A DNA stretch of 60,063 nt from Candidatus Gottesmanbacteria bacterium (GCA_016195685.1 JACPZE010000026.1:1-60063), one strand, 5' to 3'. Positions 6,523 to 55,968 are shown, counted from the first letter of the stretch. The notes: generated by a model from the letters alone, not told the origin. Program-made: numbers and translations.

Positions 6523-6677
6523 CGGGTCTTGCATATTATTAAAAATATAAATTTTTCAGACTCTGCAGCTCGCGCTCGGTATATCCCTTACCTTCTGTCC
6601 ATGTACCTTATTATTCTCACGCTCAATTGCAGAGATCTTCAAAATTTCTATTTTTAAACATGATCTCGCGTCACCCG
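6523..6677. repeat. nested palindromic element: family A arms enclosing a family B element
   Basis: Arms cgggtcttg...ctcgcgtcacccg match copies at 39642, 43540 and 55562; inner 6545-6647 matches 26745-26853. Confidence 0.85.
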
Positions 6678-6694
6678 CTATTAAAATAAATGTT

Positions 6695-7495
6695 ATGAAT
6701 GCTATAGAAAAAAAACTAATTCAATTAAAAAAAGAAAATAGATTAGGTCTTATAGCTCATGCAGTTTTGGGTTATCCGAATATGGAGAAAAGTTTAGAGA
6801 TTATAAATAGTTTAATTTCAAATGGCAGCGATTTTTTGGAATTGCAAATACCATTTTCTGATCCGGTAGCGGATGGGGAGACAATTATGAAAGCTTGCGA
6901 AGTAGCCTTGAAAAGCGGAATGAATACAGATGAGGCTTTTGAACTTGTTGGTAATTTAAGAAGGGCTGTTAACGTACCTATATTACTTATGGCTTATTAC
7001 AATACGATTTTTCGATACGGAATAAAGAGATTTTGCAAAAAAGCAAAAGATTTAAGAGTTTCTGGGATAATTGTTCCGGATATTCCACCTGAGGAAGAGA
7101 TAGCAGAGAAATTTATAACTACTTCCTTAGAATATGATATTTATCCGATCCGTGTAGTTTCACCCTCAAGTAGTATTAATAGGTTGGAAATCAATGCACG
7201 ATTTGCCAGAGGATTTGTATATTGTATAAGTCATTTTGGGGTTACTGGAACAAAGACAGTAGTTGACGATCGGCTTACAAGATATTTGCAAAGAGTTAAA
7301 CAAATTATGAAATTACCCGTTGCAGTAGGATTTGGACTTTCAAAAGCAGAGCAGATAGAAGCATTAAAAGGTGTTGCAGATATTGTAATCGTGGGAAGCG
7401 CAATTATCAAAAATTATAATGAGGGAGGAATAAAGCAAGTAAGCTCGTTTATAAAAAGTTTAAAAGAAAGTACAATGGGGAAAGGATATATATGA
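6695..7495 (+). CDS. trpA: tryptophan synthase alpha chain
   Basis: LELQIPFSDPVADGETI, LLMAYYN, IVPDIPPEE, VGFGLS, VGSAII. Confidence 0.96.
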   Translation: MNAIEKKLIQLKKENRLGLIAHAVLGYPNMEKSLEIINSLISNGSDFLELQIPFSDPVADGETIMKACEVALKSGMNTDEAFELVGNLRRAVNVPILLMAYYNTIFRYGIKRFCKKAKDLRVSGIIVPDIPPEEEIAEKFITTSLEYDIYPIRVVSPSSSINRLEINARFARGFVYCISHFGVTGTKTVVDDRLTRYLQRVKQIMKLPVAVGFGLSKAEQIEALKGVADIVIVGSAIIKNYNEGGIKQVSSFIKSLKESTMGKGYI

Positions 7496-8193
7496 GAGGA
7501 TTAGGAACAATTTTCAACGTTATTACTGTACTAATTGGTGGCAGCCTGGGACTTCTTATCGGTTCACGATTTAATAAAGACTTAAATAAAGCAGTGATAG
7601 GGGTAAATGGATTCGTATCAATGGTTATTGGTATTCAGATGGCGTTTACCTCAAAGAATATTTTGATTGTTTTAATAAGTTTGGCATTGGGAGTAATTAT
7701 CGGTGAAATTATTGATATTGAAGGGCGACTGCAGAGGTTTAGTCAACATATGGAAGATAAATTCGGCCGCGGTGAGGAAGGAAAATTTGCCAAAGGATTT
7801 CTGACTACAAGTATCCTTTTTTGTGTGGGGCCACTCACAATACTGGGTTCTTTACAGGACGGACTTACGGGTGATATTAAACTACTTGCAACCAAATCGA
7901 TCCTTGATGGTTTTTCTTCTATAGTATTTGCTTCTGCATTTGGAGTAGGAGTGATGTTTACCATAATAACAATTATAGTCGTGCAGGGGAGTCTTACTCT
8001 TCTTGCTGGTACATTGAGTGGAATACTGACACAAGCAGTAATTGCCGAACTGACCGGAGTTGGTGGTATCATGGTAATATCAATCGGTTTGGGACTGTTA
8101 GAGATAAAAAAATACAAGACTGCCAACATGTTACCGGCACTTTTGATTGCGCCGATAATAGTTATGTTATTAACTTATTTTAAATTTATATGA
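7492..8193 (+). CDS. DUF554-family multi-pass membrane protein
   Basis: GTIFNVITVLIGGSLG start, LFCVGPLTILGSLQDGL, KSILDGFSS; mostly hydrophobic helices. Confidence 0.85.
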   Translation: MRGLGTIFNVITVLIGGSLGLLIGSRFNKDLNKAVIGVNGFVSMVIGIQMAFTSKNILIVLISLALGVIIGEIIDIEGRLQRFSQHMEDKFGRGEEGKFAKGFLTTSILFCVGPLTILGSLQDGLTGDIKLLATKSILDGFSSIVFASAFGVGVMFTIITIIVVQGSLTLLAGTLSGILTQAVIAELTGVGGIMVISIGLGLLEIKKYKTANMLPALLIAPIIVMLLTYFKFI

Positions 8194-9704
8194 CAGATCC
8201 AAAAGTAAAAAAATACAGTGAGGAGTTGAAAAAGTTGGGCATTGAACACGAAATTTTGAAACATCCACAACTGGTTTCAGTTGAGGCGGTACAAAAATAT
8301 CTAGGATATGGTTTGGAAGATGCTGGAGCAACGCTCGTAATTAAGGTAGATGATAAGTTTATTGCCATAATTAGAAGGGGAGATACGAAATTAGATAATG
8401 AAAGAGTAAAAAAATATCTGGGTGTTGCCAATCTTCGAATGGCAAATGAAGAAGAATTTACAAAACTTACCGGAGTTCCAAGCGGTGCGGCTAGCGTCTA
8501 TATTCCCAGTTTGCCGACATATATAGACAAAAAAATCTTTGAAAAAGAATACATAAACGCAGGATCAGGAAGTCTTCTCTATACTTTCCGATACAAGACT
8601 AGTGATTTGAAAAAAATTCCAGGTATCAAAGTAGTTGATTTCACATCGATAGAATCAGAAAAGAAGAGTTCTTTAATTGATATAAAGGGAAAAAGGATTC
8701 TCTCTGGCATAACACCAAGTGGTGATGGCACTTTGCATATCGGTAATTACTTGGGAGCAGTAAAGCAGTTTATTGAATTTGCGAAAAATGGTGATTGTTA
8801 TCTTATGGTTGCGGATCTGCATGCGCTTACAACCATACAAAATAAAGCACAACTACAAAAGAATACGGAAACGTTGATCTTAAACGAACTTGCTTTATTA
8901 GGAAACCTTACAAATATCGTCTTTTTTAGACAATCTGATGTGCCGATGCACGCGGAGTTGACTTGGATCTTAAATAACGTTACTCCTCTGGGACTTTTAC
9001 GTCGCGCTCATGCATACAAAGATAAACTTTCAAAGGACGTGATGGAAGATGAAATAAACTTGGGGCTTTTTAATTACCCGATTCTTATGGCATCAGATAT
9101 ACTACTTTATAAACCAGATTTTGTACCTGTCGGGCGCGATCAGAAACAGCATATAGAAATCTGTCGGGATATTGCGGGAAGATTAAATAAGACATATAAA
9201 TCTGACGTTTTAAAACTTCCGAAACCATATATCCCGGAAGATGTAGCAGTAGTCATGGGTACTGATGGAAAGAGAAAAATGAGTAAATCTTTGGGGAATA
9301 TCATAAGTATATTTGATGATGAAATTGTAATAAAAAAACAAGTGATGAGTACTTATACGGATCCTACAAGAATTCATTCGAATGATCTGGGACATATAGA
9401 AGGGAATATGGTATTTGCATACCTTGATTTCTTTGGTGAAAAAAACAAAGTTTCAGAACTGAAAGATTTATACAAAGAGGGTAAAGTAGCGGATGTGGAA
9501 GTGAAAAATTATTTATTTGAGTCGTTGATGAAAACATTTAAAGATGCGCGAGTCCGATATCAGGAGCTTAAAAATAACCCACAAAAAGTTACAAAGATAT
9601 TATCGAATGGAGCAGATAGAGCTCGAGAGGTAGCTGGAAAAACCATGATGGAGGTGCGGGATGCGATAGGGTTGACCAATAATTACTCGTTCTTCAAATA
9701 TTAA
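8190..9704 (+). CDS. trpS: tryptophanyl-tRNA synthetase with N-terminal YbaK/ProX-like domain
   Basis: HIGN and KMSKS motifs, VPVGRDQKQH. The first ~150 aa resemble YbaK/INS-type editing domains (LRMANEEEF, TGVPSGA, NAGSGS). Confidence 0.92.
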   Translation: MTDPKVKKYSEELKKLGIEHEILKHPQLVSVEAVQKYLGYGLEDAGATLVIKVDDKFIAIIRRGDTKLDNERVKKYLGVANLRMANEEEFTKLTGVPSGAASVYIPSLPTYIDKKIFEKEYINAGSGSLLYTFRYKTSDLKKIPGIKVVDFTSIESEKKSSLIDIKGKRILSGITPSGDGTLHIGNYLGAVKQFIEFAKNGDCYLMVADLHALTTIQNKAQLQKNTETLILNELALLGNLTNIVFFRQSDVPMHAELTWILNNVTPLGLLRRAHAYKDKLSKDVMEDEINLGLFNYPILMASDILLYKPDFVPVGRDQKQHIEICRDIAGRLNKTYKSDVLKLPKPYIPEDVAVVMGTDGKRKMSKSLGNIISIFDDEIVIKKQVMSTYTDPTRIHSNDLGHIEGNMVFAYLDFFGEKNKVSELKDLYKEGKVADVEVKNYLFESLMKTFKDARVRYQELKNNPQKVTKILSNGADRAREVAGKTMMEVRDAIGLTNNYSFFKY

Positions 9705-9768
9705 TACCCATTTCACTTCGCTTGGTTGTCATAGGACTGGAAGTAATATATAATGAATCACTTTCGAC

Positions 9769-10104
9769 ATGAAAGATGTTATTTCTTTTCCTGATTTTGA
9801 CAAATTGGACTTAAGAGTGGGGAGAGTGGTAAGCGCTGAAAGAGTAGAGGGGTCAGACAATCTTATAAGATTATTAGTCGATCTGGGAAAAGAATACGGT
9901 GAGCGGAAAATATTTACCGGAATTGCCAAATGGTATAAACAATCACAGCTTAAAGGGAAGAAATTTGTTTTCCTTGTAAATCTAGCTCCAAAACAAATGA
10001 TGAAAGAGATGAGCGAAGGCATGATTTTATGCGCTGATTTCGACCCAAAAGCAGTTATCATACCGGTTGATAAGAAGATACCAGAGGGAGGAGTTGTTAG
10101 ATAA
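9769..10104 (+). CDS. stand-alone OB-fold tRNA-binding protein (Trbp111/CsaA/MetRS C-terminal-like)
   Basis: FPDFDKLDLRVGRV, VDLG, VNLAPKQMM..SEGMIL. Confidence 0.88.
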   Translation: MKDVISFPDFDKLDLRVGRVVSAERVEGSDNLIRLLVDLGKEYGERKIFTGIAKWYKQSQLKGKKFVFLVNLAPKQMMKEMSEGMILCADFDPKAVIIPVDKKIPEGGVVR

Positions 10105-10130
10105 TTGATCTAATTAACCTCATTTCTAAA

Positions 10131-12026: not shown

Positions 12027-12064
12027 AGTACCCCAAAAGCAACTTATGCTAAAATAAACCAACA

Positions 12065-13006
12065 ATGAAACGGCTTGTTGTAATCGATGGTCATGCTATT
12101 TTACATCGTGCCTATCACGCTCTTCCGCCTCTTACCACCTCCAAGGGACTGATTGTCAATGCAGTTTACGGGTTCGCATCGATATTGCTTCGGGTTATTG
12201 AAAGTTTACAACCAACCCATCTGGTAGTTGCTTTTGATACCCCGGAGCCTACTTTTCGAAACAAGTTATTTAAAGATTATCAGATACAAAGGCCGAAAGT
12301 AGATGATGAATTCATTCCTCAAATAAATCTTGTAAAAAAACTTGTACAAGAGATGGGTATCCCCACTTTTGAAAAAGTAGGATATGAGGCAGATGACGTG
12401 ATCGGTACAATTGCGAAGAAAGCAAATGCTGATGAAGTGATTATCGTCACTGGGGATCGCGATATTTTGCAGTTAGTCGATGATAAAGTAGGGGTTTATA
12501 TGCCCGTGAAAGGAATATCTGAATCAAAGCTTTACAAGAAAGAAGAGGTAGAAGAAAAATTTGGAGTAAGTCCATCACAAATAATTGACTATAAGGCTTT
12601 GGTAGGGGATCAATCTGATAATTACCCGGGAGTAGCAGGAATAGGACCTAAAACCGCAAGTACTCTTTTACAACGATTTCAGACTCTTGAACAGATTTAT
12701 AAGAACAAAAAAGATATAGAAAGTGAAAAGGTAAAAAAAGCCCTGGATGACTATCTGAAATCAGCCCAGATGGCAAAAAAACTAGCGACGATTGTTACCG
12801 ATGTACCGCTTGAGTTTAATGTAGATGAATGTAAATTACCCAATCTTGATAAACCCAATATTCATAGATTGTTTGAAGAGTTTGAATTCAGAACTTTGAT
12901 AACTAGGTTATCAGGAAATAAAACACAATCCCGCCGCAGCGGGATCCACGATGCTGTAATCCCGATTAAATCAGGAACAGCATCGGGACAAACGTCTCTT
13001 TTCTAA
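12065..13006 (+). CDS. stand-alone 5'-3' exonuclease / flap endonuclease (PolA N-terminal domain)
   Basis: IDGHAILHRAYHA, YEADDVIG, TGDRD, GDQSDNYPGVAGIGPKTA; no polymerase domain; ends QTSLF. Confidence 0.92.
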   Translation: MKRLVVIDGHAILHRAYHALPPLTTSKGLIVNAVYGFASILLRVIESLQPTHLVVAFDTPEPTFRNKLFKDYQIQRPKVDDEFIPQINLVKKLVQEMGIPTFEKVGYEADDVIGTIAKKANADEVIIVTGDRDILQLVDDKVGVYMPVKGISESKLYKKEEVEEKFGVSPSQIIDYKALVGDQSDNYPGVAGIGPKTASTLLQRFQTLEQIYKNKKDIESEKVKKALDDYLKSAQMAKKLATIVTDVPLEFNVDECKLPNLDKPNIHRLFEEFEFRTLITRLSGNKTQSRRSGIHDAVIPIKSGTASGQTSLF

Positions 13007-13009
13007 TTT

Positions 13010-14134: not shown

Positions 14135-14164
14135 TTTACTGATCCCCGAAGTTAAAATTAATGT

Positions 14165-15025: not shown

Positions 15026-15772
15026 ATGGATATATCCCAACCTATTGTCCAGACTTATGACAAGTCCTTCGGATTATCAAAGGATAAACCTCTTGTAATC
15101 TCCCTAGGCGGATCATTGGTTATTCCCAATAGCGGGATGGATACCAAATTTTTGGCACAATTCAATAATTTCATAAGACAAAAAATCGCCCAAGGATGGC
15201 GATTTTTTATAGTAGTTGGCGGAGGAGCGACTGCCCGCCATTATATAGAAGAAGCGCAGAAAATTGCAGGTCATATAACCGACTGGGATTTGGACTTTTT
15301 AGGTATCCATGCAACTCGTCTGAACGCGCATCTTATGAGAACTATCTTTCAGGATGTTGCACATCCTAGGATCATAGCCAATTACGAAAAAAAGATTACC
15401 CAACTGAAACAACCTTTGGTCATTGCAGCGGGATGGAAACCCGGTTTTTCTACAGACTATGATGCTGTTATATTGGCAAGAGATTACGGTGCTCAGGCTG
15501 TAATCAATATGTCCAATATCACCCAGGTTTTTGAAAAAGACCCCAAAAAATTTCCGGACGCCAGGCCTCTACACAATCTGACGTGGGAAGAATTTGAAAA
15601 GATTGTAGGAAATAAATGGAGTCCGGGGAGCAATCTCCCTTTTGATCCTGTAGCTACAAAGTTAGCTAAGGAACTGAAAATATCAGTATACGTGGTGGGC
15701 AGTGATTTGAATAATTTAGAAAATGTGATTGCAGGAAAAATTTTTCTCGGCACCGTTATTTCTCCTTCATGA
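15026..15772 (+). CDS. pyrH: UMP kinase (archaeal-type)
   Basis: VISLGGSL, VGGGATARHY, PGFSTDYDA, DPKKFPDA, PFDPVA. Confidence 0.88.
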   Translation: MDISQPIVQTYDKSFGLSKDKPLVISLGGSLVIPNSGMDTKFLAQFNNFIRQKIAQGWRFFIVVGGGATARHYIEEAQKIAGHITDWDLDFLGIHATRLNAHLMRTIFQDVAHPRIIANYEKKITQLKQPLVIAAGWKPGFSTDYDAVILARDYGAQAVINMSNITQVFEKDPKKFPDARPLHNLTWEEFEKIVGNKWSPGSNLPFDPVATKLAKELKISVYVVGSDLNNLENVIAGKIFLGTVISPS

Positions 15773-16875
15773 TTTTATCCAGTCTTTCTTTACAAAATTT
15801 TCGCAAGTTTCCCAAAAAAATTTTTCATTTTTCATCAAATCAAACGATCATTATAGGGCCAAATGGAATAGGAAAGACCAATATTCTTGAGGCGATTTTT
15901 CTACTGGCGACAGGCAGAAGTTTCCGGGCGGAAAATGACAGGGAGATGATCGAATTCGGTAAAGAAACAGGAAGAGTATCGGCCGGAGTAAATATATCGA
16001 CTGATGAGAATACCGATCTGGAAGTTTTATTGACGTCCGGAATGGTAATAGGAATAAAGACCCAACTAAAACAATATAAATTAAACGGAGTGCCCAAGCG
16101 GATGTCGGATTTTGTGGGAATCTTAAAAGTCGTACTTTTCTGGCCGCAGGATCTGGAACTCGTGACTGATTCTCCATCTGTAAGGCGCCATTATCTGGAT
16201 TTTGTTTTAATGCAGGTAGATAGAGAATACAGAAGAAATTTACATTCATATGAAAAAGGATTGCGACAGAGAAATAAAGTACTAGAAGCTATACGGGATA
16301 CCGGTGCGCATCATCATCAGTTACTCTTTTGGAATCAATTGCTTATAAAAAGCGGGGAGCATATTATAAAGAAAAGAGAGGAATATATAGATTATATTAA
16401 TAACCATCAACGATCCCCGGCCTCGCCCGGCACGGGGCGAGTAACCATCAACGATCAACAGCTGCGTTACCAATTATTTTATGATAAAAGTATTATTTCC
16501 CAAGACAGATTAGATCAATACAGTCGAGAAGAAGTGGCGTCGGCAAATACTCTGGTTGGACCACATAGGGACGATTTTAGTTTTTCTCTGAGTTCAACCC
16601 CTGGGATTGAGGCTAGAAATCTTTCACACTACGGAAGCAGGGGAGAGCAAAGACTAGGTATACTTTGGCTGAAATTGAGAGAATTGGCATATATTAAAGA
16701 AACAACAAGAGAGAAACCAATATTACTTTTGGATGATATATTTTCTGAACTGGATCATGAACGCAGGAAAATAATTTTTGATATTATTGGTAATCAACAA
16801 ACTATCATGACTACAACTGACTTACATCTTTTGGAAAAAGCCAAAATTGAAAATGCAAAGATGATAGAATTGTAA
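15769..16875 (+). CDS. recF: DNA replication/repair protein RecF
   Basis: LQNFR, Walker A GPNGIGKTN, GPHRDD, GSRGEQR, LLLDDIFSELD. Confidence 0.95.
   Translation: MILSSLSLQNFRKFPKKIFHFSSNQTIIIGPNGIGKTNILEAIFLLATGRSFRAENDREMIEFGKETGRVSAGVNISTDENTDLEVLLTSGMVIGIKTQLKQYKLNGVPKRMSDFVGILKVVLFWPQDLELVTDSPSVRRHYLDFVLMQVDREYRRNLHSYEKGLRQRNKVLEAIRDTGAHHHQLLFWNQLLIKSGEHIIKKREEYIDYINNHQRSPASPGTGRVTINDQQLRYQLFYDKSIISQDRLDQYSREEVASANTLVGPHRDDFSFSLSSTPGIEARNLSHYGSRGEQRLGILWLKLRELAYIKETTREKPILLLDDIFSELDHERRKIIFDIIGNQQTIMTTTDLHLLEKAKIENAKMIEL
16401..16463 (+). repeat. heptamer array interrupted by a GC hairpin, inside recF
   Basis: taaccatcaacgatc at 16401-16415 and 16442-16456 flanks ctcgccc-ggcacg-gggcgag. 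Confidence 0.8.
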
Positions 16876-16878: not shown

Positions 16879-17044
16879 CGGGTCCTGATAATTATAAGCT
16901 CGCATATAAATTTTTCTAGCTTACAATATTACAGTATTCCGTTAGTGCGTTGCCATTCTTATTTTATCTAAGAATCTTATTAGTTGATCCTGATTTATTT
17001 ACTTGATTTAAGCGTCCCGTGTGTGCGCTTCAAAAAATTCATAT
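16879..17044. repeat. degenerate family A/B composite element
   Basis: cgggtcctg at 16879, atataaatttttc at 16904-16916, gcgtcccgt at 17012, cttcaaaaaattcatat at 17028-17044. Confidence 0.6.
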
Positions 17045-25357: not shown

Positions 25358-26725
25358 ATGCAAGTAATAACTGATCTGCAAATCCATTCCAAATATTCCA
25401 GAGCGGTTTCTCCACAGATGACAATCCCCTTTATATGGCAGTGGGCCAAAAGAAAAGGAATAGGACTTATGGCTACCGGTGATTGGACTCATCCTTTGTG
25501 GAATAGGGAGATCAAGGCAAATTTGGAGGAAACAGGGAATGGACTACTTAAATTAAAAAACAATGAAACAATGAAACAATGGAACAATGGAGAGATGGGT
25601 CCGTTATTTCTCCTAGCGACAGAAATCTCAAGCATTTATTCCCAAGGTGGGAAGGGCAGGAGAATCCATACCCTTATCTGGGCGCCCACTCTTGATACTG
25701 CTGATAAAATCAACAAAGAGCTTATAAGACGCGGTGCCAATCTGTATTCCGACGGGCGTCCAATAATAGGACTTAGTAGTATCCAGGTGGCAGAGTTAGT
25801 TTTCTCAATTGACCCCAAATGTTTAATAATTCCTGCTCATGCCTGGACACCCTGGTTTTCTATGTATGGTAGCCAATCCGGATTTGACTCGATAGATGAA
25901 TGTTACGGCCAATTTGGAGAAAATATCTATGCAATTGAGACAGGATTATCGAGTGATCCTTCTATGAATTGGAGGATAAAAGAGTTGGATAATAGAAGTA
26001 TTGTTTCTTTTTCTGACGCACATTCTGGTCCAAAGCTGGGTAGGGAAGCAACAGTTTTTGAATTGCCAGAATTAAGTTATAAAAACATACGGGAAGCAAT
26101 CATGAAGCCTGGCATGGATAATTCACAAATTTCCCAGGGAGCAAAAATTGCATTTACGACAGAGTTTTATCCGGAGGAAGGTAAATATCATTACACAGGG
26201 CACAGAGATTGCGGAGTAAAACAAACGCCTGTTGAAACGAAACAAAAAGGCACAACCTGTCCAGTTTGCGGTAGAAAACTTACCGTTGGAGTGATGCATA
26301 GAGTAGAGGAATTATCAGGAAGAAGCGAGGAAGATTTAAAACTTAAAACTTCCGAAATAGCAGGAACAAAACTGAAAGGCATTGTTTCAGCTTTGTTTCC
26401 AAATAGACCCGCCTTTATCAAACTTGTTCCCTTACAAGAAATAATAGCCGAAGTATTTGGAAGCTTACCAACGACACAGAAGACTCAAGATGAGTATAAT
26501 AAGTTGGTTGATAATTTCGGCAGCGAATTTAAGATTTTACTGGAAACTTCTCTTGAGGATATAACTAAAATATCAGGACCCAAAATCGCAGATGCCCTTC
26601 ACAAGGTACGCATAGGGGATATATTTATCGACCCAGGATACGATGGAGTGTTTGGGAAAGTGAAAATTTGGAGTGAAGAAAAAAAAGAAGAGGATTCACA
26701 GAAAGAGCAGATGAGTTTATTTTAA
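25358..26725 (+). CDS. endonuclease Q-family PHP protein
   Basis: DLQIHSKYSRA, TGDWTHP, HAWTPW, SDAHS, zinc ribbon HRDCG..CPVCG; ends QMSLF. Confidence 0.85.
   Translation: MQVITDLQIHSKYSRAVSPQMTIPFIWQWAKRKGIGLMATGDWTHPLWNREIKANLEETGNGLLKLKNNETMKQWNNGEMGPLFLLATEISSIYSQGGKGRRIHTLIWAPTLDTADKINKELIRRGANLYSDGRPIIGLSSIQVAELVFSIDPKCLIIPAHAWTPWFSMYGSQSGFDSIDECYGQFGENIYAIETGLSSDPSMNWRIKELDNRSIVSFSDAHSGPKLGREATVFELPELSYKNIREAIMKPGMDNSQISQGAKIAFTTEFYPEEGKYHYTGHRDCGVKQTPVETKQKGTTCPVCGRKLTVGVMHRVEELSGRSEEDLKLKTSEIAGTKLKGIVSALFPNRPAFIKLVPLQEIIAEVFGSLPTTQKTQDEYNKLVDNFGSEFKILLETSLEDITKISGPKIADALHKVRIGDIFIDPGYDGVFGKVKIWSEEKKEEDSQKEQMSLF
25561..25592 (+). repeat. octamer tandem array inside the EndoQ CDS
   Basis: caatgaaa caatgaaa caatggaa caatggag; encodes NNETMKQWNNGE. 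Confidence 0.8.
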
Positions 26726-26744
26726 TCTATTTATAAATAACAGA

Positions 26745-26853
26745 ATATAAATTTTTCAGACTCTGCAGCTTCCTTCGTCGCTTTTGCTCCTCAGGACAAG
26801 CGCGTTTACCCTGAGTTTTACGAAGGGCTCAATTGCAAAGGTCTTCAAAATTT
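26745..26853. repeat. family B palindromic element carrying an inverted pair of family C REP-like units
   Basis: Left arm 26/26 and right arm 25/27 identical to 6545-6647; the cargo differs. Confidence 0.88.
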
Positions 26854-26894
26854 ATATTTCTTGTTAAAATGAGCGCGAATCATTCATAGATTTT

Positions 26895-33070: not shown

Positions 33071-33124
33071 CAGCCTCGATATCGAATTATCTCGGGTCCT
33101 GTCACCCGTTGGTATCTTCGGCTG
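33071..33124. repeat. hairpin whose apex is the joined family A arms (empty-site form)
   Basis: cgggtcctgtcacccg at 33093-33108 inside a cagcc...ggctg stem. Confidence 0.7.
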
Positions 33125-39262: not shown

Positions 39263-41632
39263 CTAAACTTTCGATCTTTTCAGAAGTAGGGAATTAGATA
39301 CTACTGATATTGAAGAAGTAGCCATCGCAAGAGAAGCAAACATAGGATTTAAAAGTATTCCCCAGATAGGATAAAGGATTCCCATTGCTATAGGAATAAG
39401 TACTACATTATAAGCAAAAGCCCAAAATAGATTGAATTTAATAGTTCGCATAGTTTTTTTGGAAAGATTTATCGCTATAGCTACGGATTTCAATTCTTTA
39501 TTTATAAGTGTAATATCCGCCGCCTCGATAGCTACATCAGTCCCGCTACCCATGGCAATTCCTACATCGGCGGAAGCAAGTGCAGGTGCATCATTTATAC
39601 CGTCACCGACAAAAGCAATTACATTTTTAGATTTTAATTTACGGGTCCTGCCGCTCAGGTATCCCAAGCGACGATACATCTCCGCTTGGGACCCCTCCTT
39701 CGCGTCACCCGTAGTTAAAATTATTGTTTTATCTCTTAAATTCTGCACGATTTTCTCTTTCTCCTGAGGTAAAACTTCAGCAAAAACCTTATCTTTATCT
39801 ATTCCTGCAAGTTTTCCTATAGCTTGGGCTGTTTGAGTATTGTCTCCTGTGACCATATAAACATCGATTTTCATCTTCTTGAGTGTATTTACGGCCTCTC
39901 TTGCATCGGGTTTAAGAGTATCGGCTATAGCAAAGAGAGCAACATTTTTCTTATTGATAGCTACATAGGCTAAAGTTTTTCCTTCTTTAGCCCACAGATT
40001 TGCTTTTTTATCCAGTTCACTGCAACGCATGACTTTTTCCTTTTCCATAAGCTTCTTATTACCCACAAGAATATTGACTCCATCTGCCCTTCCTTGTATT
40101 CCATGTCCTTCAATTGCATAAACTTTATCAGTTTTTAATTCCCTGGCTTTATTTTTTAAATATTCAATGATAGCAAAAGATAATGAGTGCTCTGAGTGTT
40201 TTTCCAGAGAATAGATTAATGAAGAAATATAATCGTGAATTGATAAATTATTAGGGATATTAATACCTAAGTCAGTCCCAACATCATCAAGCTTTTCCAT
40301 GAAAGAGAAATCAGTGACTTTGGGTTTTCCGGATGTCAAAGTACCGGTTTTGTCAAAAATAACAGCGTTTATCTTATGTGCAAGTTCCAGACTTTCAGCA
40401 TCTTTAATAAGTATTCCATGTTGGGCACCTAATCCTGTTCCTACCATAATTGCAGTAGGGGTAGCCAGACCCATCGCACAGGGACAGGCAATGATCAAAA
40501 CTGCAATAGCATTAAGCATGGCAAATAGAAAAACAGGTGTTGGACCAAAAATGTACCATACAACGAAAGTAAAAATGGCCAGCATAATCACAATTGGTAC
40601 AAAGTAAGAAGATATTATATCTGCAATTCGTTGTATTGGCGCTTTACTTCCTTGGGCTTCTTGGACGAGCTTAATTATCTGGGCGAGCATGGTGTCGCTT
40701 CCGATTTTAGTTGCCTTGAAAGTAAAAGAGCCTGTTTTATTGATAGTTGCCCCAATTACGTTATCTTCTTTACCTTTCTCAACGGGAATACTTTCTCCGG
40801 TAACCATGGATTCATCGATCGATGATTGGCCTTCAATAATAATTCCGTCAACTGGAATTTTTTCTCCGGGACGAACGCGGATCAAATCTCCGATCATAAC
40901 TTCTTCTATCGGAATATCAATTTCTTTACCGTTTCGAATTACTCGAGCTGTTTTTGCCTGAAGGCCTATCAATTTCTTAATCGCTTCAGATGTTCCGGCT
41001 TTTGCCCGCGCTTCTAAATATCGGCCCAAGAGTATTAGAGAGATTATGATGGTGGCTACGTCGAAGTAGGGAAGGGGTTCTATACCGGTATTTTTTATAA
41101 ACTGTGGTAAAAAAGTTACAAATACCGAGTATCCATAGGCTACAGTAGTACCGAAGGCAACCAATGTATCCATGTTGGCAGTTCGATGACGTAGGGCTGG
41201 AATTGTAGCGCGGTAAAAGATGGAGCCGATCCAAAACTGGACAGGAGTAGCCAAAAATAATTGGAAGTAGAAATTTTTTAGGATAAATGGTGCAGTATCC
41301 ATGAGTCCCGGGAAGCTGCCCCAAAGTATAAGTCCTCCAATAATCAGGCTGAAAATTACTTTATCCCGTAATTCAATTAATTCCTTTTTCTTTTCTAACT
41401 CTTCCGAAGACTTATTATTTTCTTCAGCTAGTATCGCTTTATAACCGACATTCACAACTGCCGTTTCCAGATCAATATCTTTGACTTTTTGAGGATCGAT
41501 AGTAACTGTAGCTTTCTCGGTAGCTAGATTGACGTTGGCATCTGTGACACCAGCTACTCTCCCTAAGGATTTCTCCAATACTCTAACGCACGATGCGCAA
41601 TGCATGCCTTTGATGGTAAAAATTTTTTTCAC
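39263..41632 (-). CDS. copA: P1B-type copper-translocating ATPase carrying a repeat-derived insertion
   Basis: GMHCASC, TGES, CPC, DKTGT, GDGIND, YN; ~30-aa insert before NVIAFVGDG. Confidence 0.95.
39642..39711. repeat. family A palindromic element in frame inside copA
   Basis: 62/70 identical to the intergenic copy at 43540-43609. Confidence 0.92.
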
Positions 41633-43191: not shown

Positions 43192-43515
43192 ATGTCAGAC
43201 GTTACAGTTACTGATTCCACATTTGATACAGAAGTCGTTAAATCCACTACACCAGTATTAGTTGATTTCTGGGCAGTTTGGTGCGGACCATGCCGTATGC
43301 AGGATCCGATTCTTGAAGAAATTATAAAAGAGTACAAGGGGAAAGTGAAAATTACGAAGTTAAATGTAGATGAGAATCCACAGTCAGCAGCAAAATATGG
43401 AGTTATGAGTATCCCCACATTGCTACTTTTCAAAAATGGAGAGATAGTCAAACAGATGATAGGGGTGCAGAGTAAAGAGACGTTGGTAGAGGAATTTAAA
43501 AAAGTTGTGAGTTAA
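43192..43515 (+). CDS. trxA: thioredoxin
   Basis: [17 protein letters not shown]. Confidence 0.96.
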
Positions 43516-43539
43516 TATTTAAGCTCGCATTATGATTTA

Positions 43540-43609
43540 CGGGTCCTGCCGCTCGGGTATCCCATACTACGATACATCTCCGTCTGGGATCCCTCCCTCG
43601 CGTCACCCG
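43540..43609. repeat. family A palindromic element (intergenic), followed by a degenerate heptamer run at 43627-43680
   Basis: 62/70 identical to the copA copy. Confidence 0.92.
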
Positions 43610-43682
43610 TTGTTAAAACTAATGTTTGAAAATTAAGCATTGTAAATTCATTAAAAATTGAAAATTTAAAATTAAAAATTGT

Positions 43683-44630
43683 GTGAATATGTACGACATA
43701 ATTATTCTCGGTTCCGGCCCTGCAGGACTCACTGCTGGAATTTATGCAATACGGGCGGGGCATAAAACTCTGCTTATTCCCGGCATCCGCTGGGGTGGGC
43801 AACTCATGTTGACAACACTGGTTGAAAACTATCCTGGATTTGTAGATGGTATCCAAGGACCAGATCTGATGATGGATATGCGTAAACAGGCAGAAAGGCT
43901 TGGAGTAGAGTTTTTGAATACTGATTTTACCCAGGCAGATTTTTCATCAAAACCCTTTAAAATTACTGCAGATGGGAAAGTTTATGAGGCAAAGTCGGTG
44001 ATTATCGCCACCGGTGCAGACAGTATTTGGTTAAATATCCCAGGTGAGATGCAACTGAGGGGAAGAGGAGTATCTACTTGTGCTGTATGCGATGCGTTTT
44101 TCTTCAAAGGGCGCGATACAGTGGTTGTAGGAGGAGGGGACAGCGCTATGGAAGATGCATTGGTCCTCTCTAAGGTAGCAAAATCGGTAACCATAATTCA
44201 CAGGCGTGATAAATTCCGCGCCTCCAAAGCGATGCAGGATAGAGTTTTTAAAGAAGCAAAAATTAAAGTTTTATGGAATAAAACAGTCATCAAATATATA
44301 GGTACGGATCATGTTGCCGGAATAATTTTAAAGGATATTCAAACAGGCAAAGAGGAAGAATTTAAAACAGATGGAGTATTTTTAGCAATTGGACATAAAC
44401 CCAATACGGAAAAGTTTGTGGGGTTAGAATTGGATAGTAAAGGATATATAGTCAGAAAAGAAATAAAAGATGAGTCAGGACTCCTGGGGTATAGAACGGG
44501 AACGAGTGTTCCTGGTGTATTTGTGGGGGGAGACGTACATGATTACCGTTACAAACAGGCGATTACAGCAGCAGGTTTTGGCTGCATGGCGGCTCTAGAC
44601 GCGGACCGATGGCTCCAGGAAAATAAATAA
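43683..44630 (+). CDS. trxB: thioredoxin reductase
   Basis: GSGPAG, CAVCD, GGGDSA, GDV..Y.QAITAAG; ATG at 43689 is the likely start. Confidence 0.95.
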   Translation: MNMYDIIILGSGPAGLTAGIYAIRAGHKTLLIPGIRWGGQLMLTTLVENYPGFVDGIQGPDLMMDMRKQAERLGVEFLNTDFTQADFSSKPFKITADGKVYEAKSVIIATGADSIWLNIPGEMQLRGRGVSTCAVCDAFFFKGRDTVVVGGGDSAMEDALVLSKVAKSVTIIHRRDKFRASKAMQDRVFKEAKIKVLWNKTVIKYIGTDHVAGIILKDIQTGKEEEFKTDGVFLAIGHKPNTEKFVGLELDSKGYIVRKEIKDESGLLGYRTGTSVPGVFVGGDVHDYRYKQAITAAGFGCMAALDADRWLQENK

Positions 44631-51061: not shown

Positions 51062-51090
51062 TTGACATCAATGCATCATGATGCTATGAT
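51062..51090 (+). promoter_or_regulatory. vapBC promoter with a palindromic operator
   Basis: TTGACA-17-TATGAT; perfect palindrome GCATCATGATGC at 51073-51084; ATG 8 nt after the -10. Confidence 0.8.
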
Positions 51091-51098
51091 GATGCCAT

Positions 51099-51356
51099 AT
51101 GGACACAATTCGAACCACTATTAGTCTCCCTGTAGATTTACATGAAGAATTAAGACTGCTTTCCATCAAGAAAAAAAAGTCCCTTGGAGATCTTATTGAA
51201 GAGAAATTCAGGGGTAAAAAGAAAAAATCAAAGAAAATAAGTATTTCGGAGCAAATTAAAAAAGATTTTGCACTTTTTGATGCAACCGCCAGGTCATCTG
51301 TAAAATATGATGCTGTCCGCGCTGTAAGAGAGGATAGAGATAGGGATAATGCTTAG
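51099..51356 (+). CDS. VapB-like antitoxin (ribbon-helix-helix N-terminus)
   Basis: RTTISLPVDLHEELR; overlaps the PIN gene. Confidence 0.75.
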   Translation: MDTIRTTISLPVDLHEELRLLSIKKKKSLGDLIEEKFRGKKKKSKKISISEQIKKDFALFDATARSSVKYDAVRAVREDRDRDNA

Positions 51357-51783
51357 AATCATCATAGATGCAAGTGTCGTTTTGAAGTGGATTCCAGGGG
51401 AGGATGAAGAATTGGTTTCGGAGGCAAGACAAATATATGAAATGATGATGGATGATAAGTTGGAAGTTTATGCTCCCACTTTTTTGTTAATTGAGGTACT
51501 AAATATTTTGACTAGGAAAAGAAAAGCAAAATCTTCGTTAGTCAAAAAAGATATTAAACTACTAAGTGGCGGTAAAATAAAACTGGTAGATTTGAATGAT
51601 TATAATTTTAATGGAATAGTAGAATTAATATATAAATACAAGCTGACTGCCTACGACGGGCTTTATTGTTATCTAGCCAAAGTGAAGAACTGTAAACTTC
51701 TAACTGCAGATAAACAACTACTTAAGCTTCACGATTTAACAATTGATATAGGTCGTTTTTTGAAACTAATGAAATCCAATTAG
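51349..51783 (+). CDS. VapC-like PIN-domain toxin
   Basis: IIIDASV, EVLN, YDGLY, LLTAD. Confidence 0.88.
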   Translation: MLRIIIDASVVLKWIPGEDEELVSEARQIYEMMMDDKLEVYAPTFLLIEVLNILTRKRKAKSSLVKKDIKLLSGGKIKLVDLNDYNFNGIVELIYKYKLTAYDGLYCYLAKVKNCKLLTADKQLLKLHDLTIDIGRFLKLMKSN

Positions 51784-51854
51784 ATGAAACCTGAATTTAA
51801 ACCATCTTGACTTTCCCTATAGGATCTTTAATATATGATAAGATGAGAGTGTTT

Positions 51855-51939
51855 GGGCCGCACACGAAAAATATTGAAAATTCGGTGCGGCACAAAGAGC
51901 CGTAATTGTCCCGTTTAACGAGACAAACGAGCTCTTAGC
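51855..51939 (-). repeat. two-hairpin dispersed element (family E), copy 2
   Basis: Reverse-complement homolog of 24393-24478 with compensatory base changes; lies in the 5' UTR of the PP-loop gene. Confidence 0.8.
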
Positions 51940-51944
51940 AAAGC

Positions 51945-53324
51945 ATGAGTTTGAAAAACGGTCATATATACATATATAGGACTATCACTAGAAACGGAAT
52001 CCAAATCGATGTAGGCAGAAAATCATACGATATAAGTTATCCTACTCACATCTGGCAACTGTTCCCCGAAGTTTATCGCCAAACATTTGCTGACTCCCTG
52101 ACTTATTTTATGACTATGCATTTGGCACTTCTAAATAGTCATAAGATAGTTTATGATTTTCCACCACCTCCCACAGAACCGTTTTTCCTAAAGGGTCTTC
52201 TTAATTCTCTTCCAGAGACAGTACTTACAGATGAGAAGAAAACGGTGAAGATGAGTGATTTGGTAAAACTTTTATATAACAGCCAATACCGGACAGAGTT
52301 TGTGGGAAGGCCCAGATATGCCAGGTTTAAAAACGTGAACAGGAATAGTTGGACCCGCTCGATAATCCCTTTTTCCTTCGGTAAAGATTCACTTTTGACT
52401 TTTGCACTCTCACAAGAACTCGGGATAAAGCCTTATCCAGTATTTTTCCGTGAACCGAGACAACCTTTTGAAAATCGGCATAAAACTAGGTTGGCAGAGA
52501 GATTCTTTGATGAGTTTGACGTGGATGTGAACTTTTTCCCGCTCTCTGCCGGATGGCTGAGGCAAGTGGAAGATAAGTATTGGGGATGGGATCTTCTTCT
52601 TACACAATATACATTACTTCTAATCCCTTTTATATTTGGTATGAGGAGTCGTTATCTTTTTTGGGCACATGAACAAAGTTGTAATGAGACATTCATGGAC
52701 AAAGAAGGATTTATCGTAAATCCTGTATATGAACAGAGTGCCAATTGGTTGCTTATGTCCAACGCCACAGCCAGGATGCTCGGATGTAACGCGATATTTG
52801 CCTCACTTATCGAGCCTATTCATGAATTAGCAATTATGAAAATACTACACTCACGTTATCCTGAGATAGGTAAATACCAGTTATCATGTTTCGGAGACGA
52901 AGAAGTCGCCAAAAACAAGCGCTGGTGCGGAATTTGTTCTAAGTGTGCAAGGATGTACATATTCCTTTTAGCATTGGGTATATCTCCCAAGAGAGTGGGT
53001 TTTACTACAAACATGCTTACCCGGAGAAAGAAATATCTTTTTGCCGTATTTCCTGAAAGAAAAAGCAGGATGGACAGTGCTTTTGATCAAAGTAGCGCGG
53101 CTCGTGAGGAACAACTTTTGGCTTTTACCATGGCAACAAGAAGAGGAATGAAAGGAGATCTTATTTCCGAATTTAAGAAACATTATTATAAAGAAGGCAG
53201 AAAAAGGGAAAATAAACTCCGGGAGAAATATTTCGGCATCCATACCTCTAATTCCTTGACATATGAACTGAAGAAGCCCTTACTTTCTATCTTTGAAGAT
53301 GAGCTACGGGGAATGAGGAGGTAG
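51945..53324 (+). CDS. PP-loop (AANH) protein, MurL-like
   Basis: SFGKDS PP-loop, HEQS..VNPVYEQS, SC...WCGICSKC zinc motif. Confidence 0.6.
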   Translation: MSLKNGHIYIYRTITRNGIQIDVGRKSYDISYPTHIWQLFPEVYRQTFADSLTYFMTMHLALLNSHKIVYDFPPPPTEPFFLKGLLNSLPETVLTDEKKTVKMSDLVKLLYNSQYRTEFVGRPRYARFKNVNRNSWTRSIIPFSFGKDSLLTFALSQELGIKPYPVFFREPRQPFENRHKTRLAERFFDEFDVDVNFFPLSAGWLRQVEDKYWGWDLLLTQYTLLLIPFIFGMRSRYLFWAHEQSCNETFMDKEGFIVNPVYEQSANWLLMSNATARMLGCNAIFASLIEPIHELAIMKILHSRYPEIGKYQLSCFGDEEVAKNKRWCGICSKCARMYIFLLALGISPKRVGFTTNMLTRRKKYLFAVFPERKSRMDSAFDQSSAAREEQLLAFTMATRRGMKGDLISEFKKHYYKEGRKRENKLREKYFGIHTSNSLTYELKKPLLSIFEDELRGMRR

Positions 53325-53343
53325 TTAATTCTAGGTAAATCAA

Positions 53344-54840
53344 TCAGACTAAGGTAGGTACAACTCGCATAAAATTTTGTTGGGGATTTTCAATAGTATT
53401 TTTAGAAATCATCTGCTTATAATCTCCAAAGGTTGCTATAAGTTTACTTATAGAAAATCCCGCCGCCGCCGATGGTTCAACACCTTCTGTCACAGCAGTG
53501 TATAAAATCGGATTATTAAATTGTCCTACCAAAGCAAGTACGTTTAAAAGTACAGCACTTAGATCGCTGGCATGCATAAGTGAACCTCGTACAGGATGAC
53601 TTTTCATCGCTTCTTTAGCCTCTTTTTTATCATGAGTTGCATTTTCTCCTGCAAGGTAAGATTGTTCGCCTGTTCTAGTAGTGAAAATTGTTGGAACAAG
53701 GATGGATAATCCAAGCATTGCTGCCGCAGCTAAATCCATACCAGCTTCCTGAAATTTGACCGCAATTGATCCTCCCACTGCAGATGAGACAAGCCCGGTA
53801 CTGATTGCTTTCTTATATTTTCGCATAAGAATACTGCCTAGTTCTTTTAGTTTTTCTGAACGAGGTTGACCTTCTTTTACGTCAACCCAGGCAGCAGAAG
53901 CATTCGTAGCTAAATCTGCAATAACGATAGGAATAACCCTTTTTACTGCTTCCAAAAGCGCATTTCCAGAATTTTCTAACCCTGCCTGGGAAAGAATCAA
54001 AGCAACTCCTGCCGAGATACCAAGAGCTACTGTTGCCATTTGGACATCACCCTTCACCGCCTCTAATGTATGCTGCCATATCGCGTAATACTTTACTAAG
54101 TGCTTATCGATTAGTGAGCTTAACTCGTTATTCAAGGTAGTAGTTTGCTCGTTTGCTTCTGAGGATATAATTCTACATTTTATAAGATGACCAGAACCTG
54201 CTCGTATAAGATTAATATCTTCTTTTATGGTTTCGTCATCCTGTTCTTTTACTAAAACTTCTGGCTGTCCATTTTGTTCATGGTAAATTTCTCTAATCGC
54301 TCTATTTGTGTCTCCTTTATAATAATCGACTACCCGATGAAGAGCATTGAGCATATCTGGTGGCAGACGAGTTTCTTTAAGGAATACAAGATATCCATCT
54401 CTTTTCATAATCTGATGGACGTCATTAATGAGTTTTTCACCTCCAAGTCCTAAAACGATTTGCAACTCAATAGGAAGACTTTTCGCTTTCTCAAAAGAAT
54501 CTATAATAGTGATTTCTGTAGAATCTAATATTTTTTTAGCACCTTCTCCTACCGGAGTGTTATGATTGCGGCTTAGAGTATCAAAGAGATTCAAAAGCCC
54601 TTCTTTTCCTTTTGCCAAATTAAACCAATAATGGTTTTTATCATTTTTAAGAAATTTATCAATACCCTGACAAAATTTTTCACCTTCTTGTTTAGAAAAA
54701 AGTGGTAGATCACAGCATGCCTTAGCGAAACCAGAGATAAGTGGTCGGTTTAATGTAGTCCATCCGAATTCTTTATCTAAAATTTGATTAGAATTCAGAT
54801 CGACTCTAGGTTTTGGTTCTTCGGATGTCATCATATACAC
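53344..54840 (-). CDS. orphan 498-aa protein with a hydrophobic helical C-terminal half
   Basis: Long open frame; no family recognised. Confidence 0.75.
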   Translation of the reverse strand: MYMMTSEEPKPRVDLNSNQILDKEFGWTTLNRPLISGFAKACCDLPLFSKQEGEKFCQGIDKFLKNDKNHYWFNLAKGKEGLLNLFDTLSRNHNTPVGEGAKKILDSTEITIIDSFEKAKSLPIELQIVLGLGGEKLINDVHQIMKRDGYLVFLKETRLPPDMLNALHRVVDYYKGDTNRAIREIYHEQNGQPEVLVKEQDDETIKEDINLIRAGSGHLIKCRIISSEANEQTTTLNNELSSLIDKHLVKYYAIWQHTLEAVKGDVQMATVALGISAGVALILSQAGLENSGNALLEAVKRVIPIVIADLATNASAAWVDVKEGQPRSEKLKELGSILMRKYKKAISTGLVSSAVGGSIAVKFQEAGMDLAAAAMLGLSILVPTIFTTRTGEQSYLAGENATHDKKEAKEAMKSHPVRGSLMHASDLSAVLLNVLALVGQFNNPILYTAVTEGVEPSAAAGFSISKLIATFGDYKQMISKNTIENPQQNFMRVVPTLV

Positions 54841-54903
54841 TTGTATTACAGTAATGGGAAATCTCTACTATTTATATTCCTTTTTATTCTATAATAACAC
54901 CAG

Positions 54904-55968
54904 ATGACATATGATCTTATAATTATCGGTGCTGGTCCCGCAGGGTTAACGGCTTCTATCTACGCTTCTTGTTATCACCTTTTACATATAGTTATTGGTA
55001 GGGAATTAGGAGGACAACTTCAATTGGCTCCAGATATCTTAAATTATCCGGGTTTTGAAAAAATTTCCGGCAAAGAATTGACGGAAAGAATAATAAATCA
55101 ATTAAAAAAACGTGGAGGTGAATTAACTATTGGTTCTGTAGTTAAAATAAAAAGTAATAATGGTTTATTTGAAATAGAAATACAGGAGGGGAATAAATAC
55201 CAAGCAAAAGCCATTATTTTGGCTACAGGTACCGAGAGAAGGAAGCTAAACGTGCCTGGAGAAGGGGAATATACCTCTAAAGGAGTCCATTACTGCGCTA
55301 CGTGTGAAAAGTTTGACTATGAAGGGAAAGTTTGTGGAGTAGTAGGAGGGGCAAATAGTGCCGTACAGGCTGCTGTTGAACTCTCCCAAGCAGCAAGTAA
55401 GGTATACATTATATATAGGGGTACACAGCTTCGGGGAGATGCGGTATGGCTAGAACAGGTGGAGAAACACCCAAATATCGAGGCTATTTATAATACTGTT
55501 GTGACTGAGATTATAGGAGATGGAGAGAAGGTGACGGGAGTAAAAATAAAATCTACATCTGCGGGTCCTGCCGCTCGCGTATCCCAAGGTGACGCTTCAA
55601 GTCGCTCGCCTCAGGCGAGCTCTCCCAACGGTAGCGCATCACTTGGGAGTTCCTCGCTCGCGTCACCCACTGATAACTTGTTACAACTTGATAAGTTATT
55701 TATAGAAATAGGTGGAGTACCGGGGACAGCATTAGTGATACCTTTGGGAGTAGAAGTGGATCCGGGGGGATTTATAATAACTGATCAGAAATTAGCCACG
55801 AATGTGCCAGGAATTTTTGCAGCAGGAGACTTAGTGACTTTTGGTTATAATCTCGAGCAAATCTCATCTGCGGTAGGACTGGGAGCCCGTTCTGCTGCTT
55901 CTGCTTTTGCCTATCTTAAAGGCGACAAAGCCCCAACTGTCTGGGGAGGGAGTCAGATAAAAAGATAA
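54904..55968 (+). CDS. second thioredoxin reductase-like flavoprotein carrying a repeat-derived insertion
   Basis: GAGPAG, CATCE, GGANSA, FAAGD; Ser/Ala/Pro-rich insert SAGPAARVSQGD...SLASP. Confidence 0.9.
   Translation: MTYDLIIIGAGPAGLTASIYASCYHLLHIVIGRELGGQLQLAPDILNYPGFEKISGKELTERIINQLKKRGGELTIGSVVKIKSNNGLFEIEIQEGNKYQAKAIILATGTERRKLNVPGEGEYTSKGVHYCATCEKFDYEGKVCGVVGGANSAVQAAVELSQAASKVYIIYRGTQLRGDAVWLEQVEKHPNIEAIYNTVVTEIIGDGEKVTGVKIKSTSAGPAARVSQGDASSRSPQASSPNGSASLGSSSLASPTDNLLQLDKLFIEIGGVPGTALVIPLGVEVDPGGFIITDQKLATNVPGIFAAGDLVTFGYNLEQISSAVGLGARSAASAFAYLKGDKAPTVWGGSQIKR
55562..55668. repeat. family A element with expanded cargo, in frame inside the second trxB
   Basis: Same arms as 39642 and 43540; 57-nt centre that contains a gctcgc-ctcag-gcgagc hairpin. 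Confidence 0.9.

Follow-up and report, generated by a model that had tools for sequence, protein, structure and literature searches.

Family A sites in the window

The window, a 60,063-nt stretch of DNA from a Candidatus Gottesmanbacteria bacterium (coordinates are counted from its first letter), encodes a copper P-type ATPase (CopA, 39263..41632, - strand) and a second thioredoxin-reductase-like protein (TrxB, 54904..55968, + strand), both of which carry an in-frame copy of a GC-rich palindromic element, family A. The best named relatives of the two proteins belong to Candidatus Gottesmanbacteria and other Microgenomates (60-77% identity). The left-arm motif of family A, CGGGTCYTG, has six matches in the window (6523, 16879, 33093, 39642, 43540 and 55562), all on the + strand, compared with 0.29 expected. 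A sequence-only reading of this DNA had reported family A sites at these positions; each was borne out by reading the sequence, and the right-arm motifs GTCACCCG and CTCGCGTCACCC were located at the right ends that it gave. Family A elements are 64-66% GC, compared with 37% GC for the window.

The CopA copy and one intergenic copy are of a short form. Their cores (39642-39711 and 43540-43609) are both 70 nt long and identical at 62/70 positions, as had been described. The 70-nt extent is correct for the GC-rich core only, since AT-rich outer arms belong to the unit, and the full units (39631..39729 and 43529..43627, both + strand) measure 99 nt and are identical at 86/99 positions. The first unit lies antisense in CopA, a detail absent from the earlier description, and is apparently translated (33 residues). 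The second is intergenic, with the thioredoxin gene (43192..43515) on its left and the first trxB (43683..44630) on its right. The copy in the second TrxB is of a long form, with a core of 108 nt or 36 codons (55562..55669, + strand), in which the same arms enclose a longer centre with an inner hairpin. It is inserted in the sense orientation and in frame, reading AGPAARVSQ...SSLASP. The earlier claim of two in-frame copies, one just before the GDGIND motif of CopA and one in the second TrxB, was confirmed, both open reading frames (ORFs) being open across the element.

The remaining three sites are a composite, a remnant and a solo arm. The composite (6512..6694, + strand) lies between trpB (5268..6518) and trpA (6695..7495), two genes that are usually tightly coupled, and sits in the short spacer between them. 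From the outside in, it consists of AT arms, the family A outer arms CGGGTCTTG (6523-6531) and CTCGCGTCACCCG (6665-6677), family B arms (6544-6653), and an A-like inner piece, CGCGCTCGGTATATCCC. The A arms here (6523-6677, 155 nt) do enclose a family B element, as previously noted. The other family B copy (26744..26859, + strand) is without A arms and sits between A-like AT arms. Its centre (26771-26830) is homologous to an in-frame insert (LRRFAPQGKP, then RVYPEQLRRAQKAS) in the first hot-spot TrxB loop of relatives (L045:10273-10480).

The arms occur without cargo at 33093..33108 (+ strand, intergenic), where the 16 nt read exactly CGGGTCCTGTCACCCG, that is, CGGGTCCTG followed directly by TCACCCG. 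This remnant retains only helices P1 and P2 of the fold described below, the interior being lost. The copy at 16879..16887 (+ strand) is reduced to the 9-nt left arm alone, CGGGTCCTG, directly after the stop codon of a recF-like ORF, and no right arm follows. A covariance model built from the short copies revealed no extra family A copies in the window. The search model R1 was off by one column on its 3' side at three pairs and was used for searching only, while the pair counts given below used the corrected structure.

Distribution and fold of family A

Family A copies share the arrangement 5'-CGGGTCCTGCCGCTC-NN-GTATCCCA ... TGGGA-(1-3 nt)-CCCTC-N'N'-TCGCGTCACCCG-3'. The resulting chassis comprises ~25 nt at each end, and is invariant and asymmetric. 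The arms are not mutual inverted copies (left arm CCTGCCGCTC; reverse complement of the right arm GACGCGAAGG), and this asymmetry is itself conserved. The single strand folds as a rod with five helices around a variable tip: P1 (CGGG/CCCG), P2 (TG/CA), P3 (CGC/GCG), P4 (NNG/CN'N') and P5 (TCCCA.../...TGGGA). Invariant unpaired bases lie between the helices (TCC; C and T; TC and TC; TA and CCCCT).

To assemble a census, exact-pattern scans for the left arm were carried out, so that the left arm except NN is fixed by the search in the copies found in this way. The census comprises 31 distinct copies, 68-166 nt in length and with unrelated flanks, on ~25 contigs from independent assemblies; family A is thus not confined to the window. 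Among metagenome-assembled genomes (MAGs), copies are present in Gottesmanbacteria (L002, L003, L010) and in Saccharibacteria/Saccharimonadales (L005, L007). Copies were also found in many JGI and ENA metagenome contigs, and in two MAGs labelled "uncultured Gammaproteobacteria" (L001, L006 and L008, CAYIFB01...; L009, CAZFNL01...). The contig of L001 encodes a TrxB (P0128) 69% identical to that of the window, which suggests that the Gammaproteobacteria label of these MAGs is probably wrong.

Matches at L004, L021 and L033, all in GC-rich genomes, lack a right arm and were rejected as due to chance. The left-arm pattern had no match in viral contigs, and a single match to the right-arm pattern, in viral contig L038, was rejected as a chance match in GC-rich DNA. 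A search with the antisense CopA peptide returned no candidate, and the sense TrxB peptide gave one low-complexity match among 1.8 billion representatives; in-frame copies are not countable by peptide search, the peptides being too short and too biased. The only neighbours that recurred across loci were host-gene families and translations of the element itself.

Assemblies of different samples in NCBI, ENA, JGI and Logan contain the element, which rules out the assembly chimeras that the sequence-only reading had considered. The broader idea that family A is either an assembly artefact or an ancient native protein feature draws only on the fact that some TrxB orthologs have the insert in common, as described below. 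It is hardly credible given these independent assemblies, the lack of the insert in most orthologs, and the occurrence of the same DNA between genes and in both orientations.

NN and N'N' are perfectly Watson-Crick complementary in 25/27 copies and fall into five types (AG/CT, GG/CC, GA/TC, GC/GC and GT/AC), the window TrxB copy being of the GC/GC type. Across the 31 copies, 87.6% of cells in the named structure pair, and the covariation score was 0.186, compared with 0.082 in shuffles (reached by 0/500). In a control in which the pairing partners were slid, covariation was far lower. The informative columns are NN, P5 and the right arm, the rest of the left arm being fixed by the search pattern. 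Copies found via protein homology showed additional compensatory changes in P3 (G-C to A-T), P5 and the inner hairpin P6. The two strands of the CopA copy gave fold z-scores of -4.6 and -7.0. Counts of wobble pairs in the unascertained copies (7 G-T and 5 A-C) were uninformative for the strand, and strand inference from wobbles is biased in the pattern-found copies, in which the left arm is fixed by the search. At gathering thresholds the window had no match to any Rfam family, small ribozymes included, and searches around two copies with E up to 10 gave chance-level matches only (E ≥ 1.5).

The description of family A as fixed arms with swappable cargo proved accurate, as at least four different centres occur between the constant arms. 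These are the short form, whose tip carries a conserved loop (CGATACATCTCCG); the long form, in which conserved junction motifs (ACGCTTCAA.TCG ... CTCAAGGCCAGTGAAGC) surround a covarying hairpin; family B; and an "AKASAGKPA" centre (L047). In L030 the centre is an AT-rich 100-nt piece. At L047 (1501-2616, P0155), the first TrxB loop contains outer arms CGGGTCCCGCC ... TCACTCGCGTCACCCG around a 42-nt centre encoding FAKASAGKPAFINS.

The layers outside the core vary as well. Bare cores without an outer shell occur at L003, L009, L010, L018, L028, L037 and in the window TrxB. About 15 copies have AT-rich outer arms (CATwATTATAATTTA / TwGTTAAAATTAATGTA), and in L001, L006, L008 and L025 the AT arms are accompanied by a further palindrome, CGAGTTTCGCG...CGCGAAACTCG. 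The Saccharimonadales copies L005 and L007 have a different outer hairpin. The layering implied by the earlier term "nested system" is therefore real, the core being found bare, in AT arms, or in AT arms plus the CGAGTTTCGCG palindrome; the accompanying notion that hairpins are landing sites was not supported.

The AT arms raise the alternative that family A is an ordinary double-strand MITE (a miniature transposable element with inverted repeats), with these arms as the true terminal inverted repeats (TIRs) for a DDE transposase, and with the A core and family B as cargo. Consistent with this, the AT arms are common to ~15 copies on contigs of 36-37% GC, similar AT arms flank the stand-alone family B copy at 26744, and an ORF for a DDE (IS66/Mutator-like) transposase lies 3 kb from the copy in L035. 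However, at least 11 GC cores lack AT arms, with unrelated flanks in genomes of 41-52% GC, and also in the window TrxB. Furthermore, invariance and covariation reside in the GC chassis and not in the AT arms, and the AT ends show no target-site duplication. We consider this alternative improbable.

Family A copies inside genes

ORFs remain open across the element in CopA and TrxB of the window, and in genes for family-4-like glycosyltransferases (L009, L037), an FAD oxidoreductase (L010), a RarA-like ATPase (L028), a Maf-like protein (L035) and TrxB (L022); the gene names at the L loci are readings of the sequence and not database matches. All in-gene copies are free of stop codons and keep the host frame, despite very different centre lengths. 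Sense copies read GPAA(R/Q)VS.... In the antisense direction, only one frame lacks stop codons, giving GDA(K/S/E)EG.... All four antisense copies (4/4) use this sole open frame, with a probability of ~1/81 by chance. From this conservation of frame we infer that the copies are translated. Sense and antisense copies inside genes are roughly equal in number. An intron or intein reading was rejected, since every in-gene copy is stop-free and in frame, and the antisense copies are in the single open frame.

In CopA, the distance from TGD to GDGIND is 47 amino acids in most of 120 orthologs compared with 82 in the window, making the loop before GDGIND 35 amino acids longer than in most orthologs. 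Most of these orthologs are without any insert. An unrelated GC-rich palindrome occupies the same spot in the closest relative (77% identity, GCA_040960315.1). In the same loop, other orthologs have an AT-rich palindrome encoding ESRIKNQ...HNSKFILHNS, and yet others a 5-aa TTTYKLKPK piece. Altogether, the orthologs P0002-P0120 contain at least six unrelated insert families in this loop across Microgenomates lineages.

TrxB orthologs (P0122-P0240) range from 311 to 427 amino acids, and two of their loops contain at least eight insert families, with family A peptides at both. The insert in the window TrxB lies in a beta-hairpin loop. In its AlphaFold model (mean predicted local distance difference test score, pLDDT, 83), residues 223-255, between strands 210-217 and 259-261, have pLDDT <50 and no secondary structure, so that the insert is predicted to be a disordered surface loop in an otherwise confident fold. 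For the L037 glycosyltransferase with a family A copy, an insert-free homolog is encoded in the window.

The sequence-only reading had proposed that hairpins serve as landing sites for other hairpins. The pile-up of inserts is explained at least as well by a few permissive loops, as the only tolerant places in compact genomes. The sole clean filled/empty pair is for another family, family C, in TrxB P0126 (L043) and P0124 (L042). There, a 60-nt insert lies in the tandem octamer repeat ACAATGAA/ACAATGGA, between the two octamers, with a junction ambiguity of 0-2 nt; the target was this repeat and not a hairpin.

Further hairpins and repeats were noticed elsewhere in the window. Family C, a third in-frame hairpin family (CCCG-N6-CGGGATCCACGATGCTGT...), occurs at 12924-12965 in the ORF for a 5'-3' exonuclease (12065..13006). 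At 16397-16466, in the recF-like ORF (15769..16875), a GC-rich hairpin, CCCGGCCTCGCCCGGCACGGGGCGAG, lies in frame between perfect 14-nt direct repeats, AACCATCAACGATC, suggesting either that it inserted and duplicated its target or that a duplication arose by slippage. The tandem octamer repeat ACAATGAA/ACAATGGA is also found at 25560-25596 in the ORF 25358..26725. In the right frame it would encode the peptide NNETMKQWNN, the repeat that fills the TrxB loops of many relatives.

Three TrxB orthologs (P0122/L044, P0127/L045 and P0135/L046) were found by whole-protein homology and not by a DNA pattern. Each carries family A at the same codon position and in the same orientation as the window TrxB, in the long form and with NN type GC/GC. 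The sequence-only reading had held that inserts shared by orthologs of CopA and TrxB across distant taxa would mark them as ancient features. Such sharing was seen in part: TrxB orthologs with the insert at this site have 74-86% amino-acid identity, while most CopA orthologs have no insert. Since orthologs carry family A at the same site, the window TrxB copy is old or repeatedly renewed.

In comparisons of these three orthologs with the window, four-fold sites of the host gene were 29-44% identical (saturated) and codon positions 1+2 were 82-91% identical, whereas the element arms (2 x 27 nt) were 87-94% identical. In the left arm, 18/21 four-fold positions were unchanged (manual count), which indicates constraint on the nucleotides and not on the peptide. 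The centres of these copies differ in length and sequence, yet stay in frame with hairpins kept.

These values support an alternative in which the chassis is a functional structured motif that spread long ago and is now under purifying selection in place, for example as a DNA site for a host protein or as structured mRNA, with mobility having ceased to be its chief feature. The centres agree with it, containing compensatory hairpins (GCTCGCC/GGCGAGC in one, CCCCGAC/GTCGGGG in another) with conserved junction bases, and in several cases C(TTCG)G-type loops on the + strand. We nevertheless regard this alternative as unlikely. The element is lost or degraded in many orthologs of similar divergence, the roughly equal use of the two orientations in genes argues against an mRNA role, and no Rfam family matches.

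The fifth TrxB copy, at L022, is instructive for how the arms have been conserved. Four of the five TrxB copies (the window and the three unascertained orthologs) share NN type GC, while L022 reads GT/GC at NN/N'N'. The constant NN type favours purifying selection in situ and argues against wholesale conversion. The centre of the L022 copy is ~90% identical (manual reading) to that of a copy at an unrelated locus (L014:9006-9112), which points to recent exchange or re-insertion more than to static conservation, and favours the conversion and re-insertion readings. The arms may have been conserved by purifying selection acting in place, by gene conversion with other copies as donors, or by repeated re-insertion or replacement of a module where a copy already resides.

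Other orthologs contain remnants at the same TrxB position. In L040, CGGGTCCTGCCGC is joined to CGCACCCG, and in L039, CAGGTCCTG is joined to TCGCATCTGG. L041 retains the left arm, its left junction being that of the full L022 copy, and then shows a deletion. The remnants form a graded series of interior losses that are roughly symmetric around the dyad, as is expected from replication slippage across a hairpin (palindrome instability). The 16-mer at 33093 fits this series and, judged from its sequence, is best read as a symmetric internal deletion. The earlier view of it as an empty landing site is not upheld, as the orthologous TrxB site shows graded remnants alongside full elements in relatives.

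Four sequences break exactly after CGGGTCYTG (33093, 6523, 16879 and P0146/L039), and we therefore retain, at low probability, a reading in which the small hairpin formed by CGGGTCCTG and TCACCCG is itself the target, with swappable inner modules homing into its tip. Several cargos between the same outer arms, a core at the dyad of three different outer palindromes, and differing centre subtypes at orthologous sites would agree with such homing. It would, however, require the 16-mer to pre-exist at every site, including many unrelated genes, and a single exact empty copy was found in ~350 kb examined. Moreover, remnants also break at other symmetric positions, after CCGC (L040) and GTATC (L041), as predicted by hairpin-mediated deletion. 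A target hairpin is in our view improbable.

Proposed mobility of family A and comparison with known systems

The orientation of family A was judged by GC skew, ORF picking on short contigs being unreliable. The + strand of the element is on the G-rich strand (positive GC skew of the flanks) at 22/25 loci. Per copy and with host genes excluded, the skew agrees with the + strand of the element in 27/32 cases, among them copies that lie antisense in their host gene. Across the window, 11/12 five-kb bins have positive GC skew, and all six copies are on the + strand. By this measure, the written strand of family A lies on the lagging-strand template. A bias to this strand has been described for single-strand transposition by IS200/IS605 elements (PMC5027513, PMC6006769). 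Inspection of ~30 copies revealed no direct repeat flanking the core or the AT-armed composite that would indicate a target-site duplication, and no near-identical empty site for comparison. The strand bias and the apparent lack of target duplication would suit the HUH/Y1 transposase named as a candidate in the sequence-only reading.

No transposase was found among the 27 ORFs scanned in the window, in agreement with the earlier statement that it contains no mobilising enzyme. In the sequence scanned, there was also no autonomous insertion sequence with the same ends. The DDE transposase-like ORF at L035 (~3001-3993, - strand), which has weak IS66/Mutator Pfam matches, showed no link to the element.

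On balance, and by a narrow measure, we favour the reading that family A is a mobile element of Patescibacteria (Candidate Phyla Radiation, CPR), non-autonomous, rich in GC and able to form hairpins, which resembles the Rickettsia palindromic elements (RPEs) and has a folded chassis that is acted on in trans. This keeps the mobile, RPE-like, modular palindrome adding peptide loops of the earlier interpretation, and discards its empty landing site as probably wrong. In the proposed mechanism, the chassis folded in single-stranded DNA would be the cis site for a trans factor encoded elsewhere in the genome; a factor recognising the folded single strand is our best guess. It would copy or move the element without target duplication, preferring one orientation relative to replication. 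Insertions in genes would survive only if the frame is kept and a surface loop tolerates the extra peptide, and the same few loops would therefore gather many different elements. Copies would then decay by symmetric internal deletion across the hairpin, giving rise to the 16-nt "empty" copy, and apical modules may be exchanged or gained when one element inserts into another or when copies recombine via their common arms.

Several observations weigh against a mobile element acted on in trans. The left flanks (CACG, AATG, CCAG, AGAA, TCCA, TTTA and others) show no conserved 5' tetranucleotide, as IS200/IS605 would require, since those elements insert 3' of a fixed tetra- or pentanucleotide matched by a guide at the foot of the hairpin. 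A motif scan for Y1/HUH enzymes, including REP-associated tyrosine transposases (RAYTs; REP, repetitive extragenic palindrome), found none in 288 kb, a scope short of genome-wide. No copy with a long, gene-carrying centre occurred among the copies examined, and no closely related filled/empty pair for family A among the sequences compared. On short contigs, replication and gene direction are not cleanly separable. Finally, the arms are conserved in genes whose synonymous sites are saturated, which a passively decaying selfish insert should not show.

Family A and at least half a dozen companion families have added length, time after time, to the same surface loops in core enzymes. CPR genomes are tiny and gene-dense, and such insertions help to account for the unusual variation in length among CPR proteins and provide a ready source of new peptide loops. 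The rigid, nucleotide-conserved, covarying chassis offers a handle on how RPE-like elements move and why some persist, and predicts a specific trans-acting partner, traceable by co-occurrence across genomes. To our knowledge, few mobile elements have been described in CPR bacteria, and palindromic or MITE-like repeats of this group were not described in the literature collection searched.

The comparison of family A with RPEs made in the sequence-only reading is apt, both being palindromic and dispersed, with in-frame copies in enzymes. Like family A, RPEs are short (~100-150 nt) palindromic repeats of a small genome, with no known transposase. They were reportedly found in frame in unrelated housekeeping genes by Ogata et al. 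in 2000 and Amiri et al. in 2002. Such insertions occupy surface positions; some orthologs retain them, and in others they decay (PMC10969869). The host of family A is different, Patescibacteria and not Rickettsia, and family A is a GC-rich element in an AT-rich genome. It differs further, by comparison with the descriptions and not the sequences of RPE-1 to RPE-10, in its asymmetric invariant chassis, its hypervariable but always-paired dinucleotide, and its swappable tips and outer layers.

IS200/IS605-derived palindrome-associated elements and the REP/REPIN-RAYT system, with single-strand transposition by HUH/Y1 enzymes, recognise imperfect hairpins in single-stranded DNA, which would explain the conserved mismatches, compensatory pairs, lack of target duplication and lagging-strand bias of family A (PMC5027513, PMC6006769, PMC3733652). 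However, family A forms one long asymmetric hairpin, unlike the separate left- and right-end hairpins of IS200/IS605, and has no conserved target tetranucleotide. Unlike REPs and REPINs, which are palindromes of 20-40 nt outside genes with a GTAG or CGTC tag, it is frequent in genes and not extragenic, its arms are not a near-identical inverted pair, and it has no GTAG tag.

The architecture of family A is also similar to that of integron attC sites, with a folded single strand in which paired boxes are conserved, spacers are unpaired, the base has extrahelical bases, and the tip is a variable structure of very different lengths. This likeness suggests a further possibility, one that we hold to be unlikely, in which the chassis is a structure-specific site of single-strand recombination or processing, kept in situ by a dedicated CPR enzyme that renews or swaps the apical module. 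Resident hairpins would then be long-lived docking sites in genes, and the loops of core enzymes would be continually rewritten. In attC, the structure is conserved and the sequence hardly so, apart from the R'' (RYYYAAC) and R' (GTTRRRY) boxes, and the sites form cassette arrays next to the integrase gene (intI). In contrast, family A ends in CGGGTCC and GTCACCCG without R boxes, and is highly conserved in sequence, dispersed and intragenic.

Compared with a classical MITE, family A has complementary ends (CGGGT/ACCCG, with AT arms in many copies), but shows no target-site duplication. Other intragenic bacterial MITEs, and the QMITEs of Coxiella, are likewise small non-autonomous repeats able to make in-frame fusions (PMC5896051, PMC10969869). 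These MITEs have ordinary TIRs and are far less rigid than family A, and occupation of the same loops in orthologous enzymes by a multitude of families is not known for them.

The mobile GC clusters of yeast mitochondria are GC-rich palindromes in an AT-rich genome, with an unknown mechanism of movement. Like family A, these clusters and the coding palindromes of organelles (PMC6649704) are GC-rich in AT-rich genomes, nested, and sometimes in frame. The hosts and sequences are unrelated to those of family A, and the GC clusters are much shorter. Taken together, these comparisons place family A in a known kind of mobile DNA, that of RPE-like elements; what is new is the host group and the unusually rigid structure.

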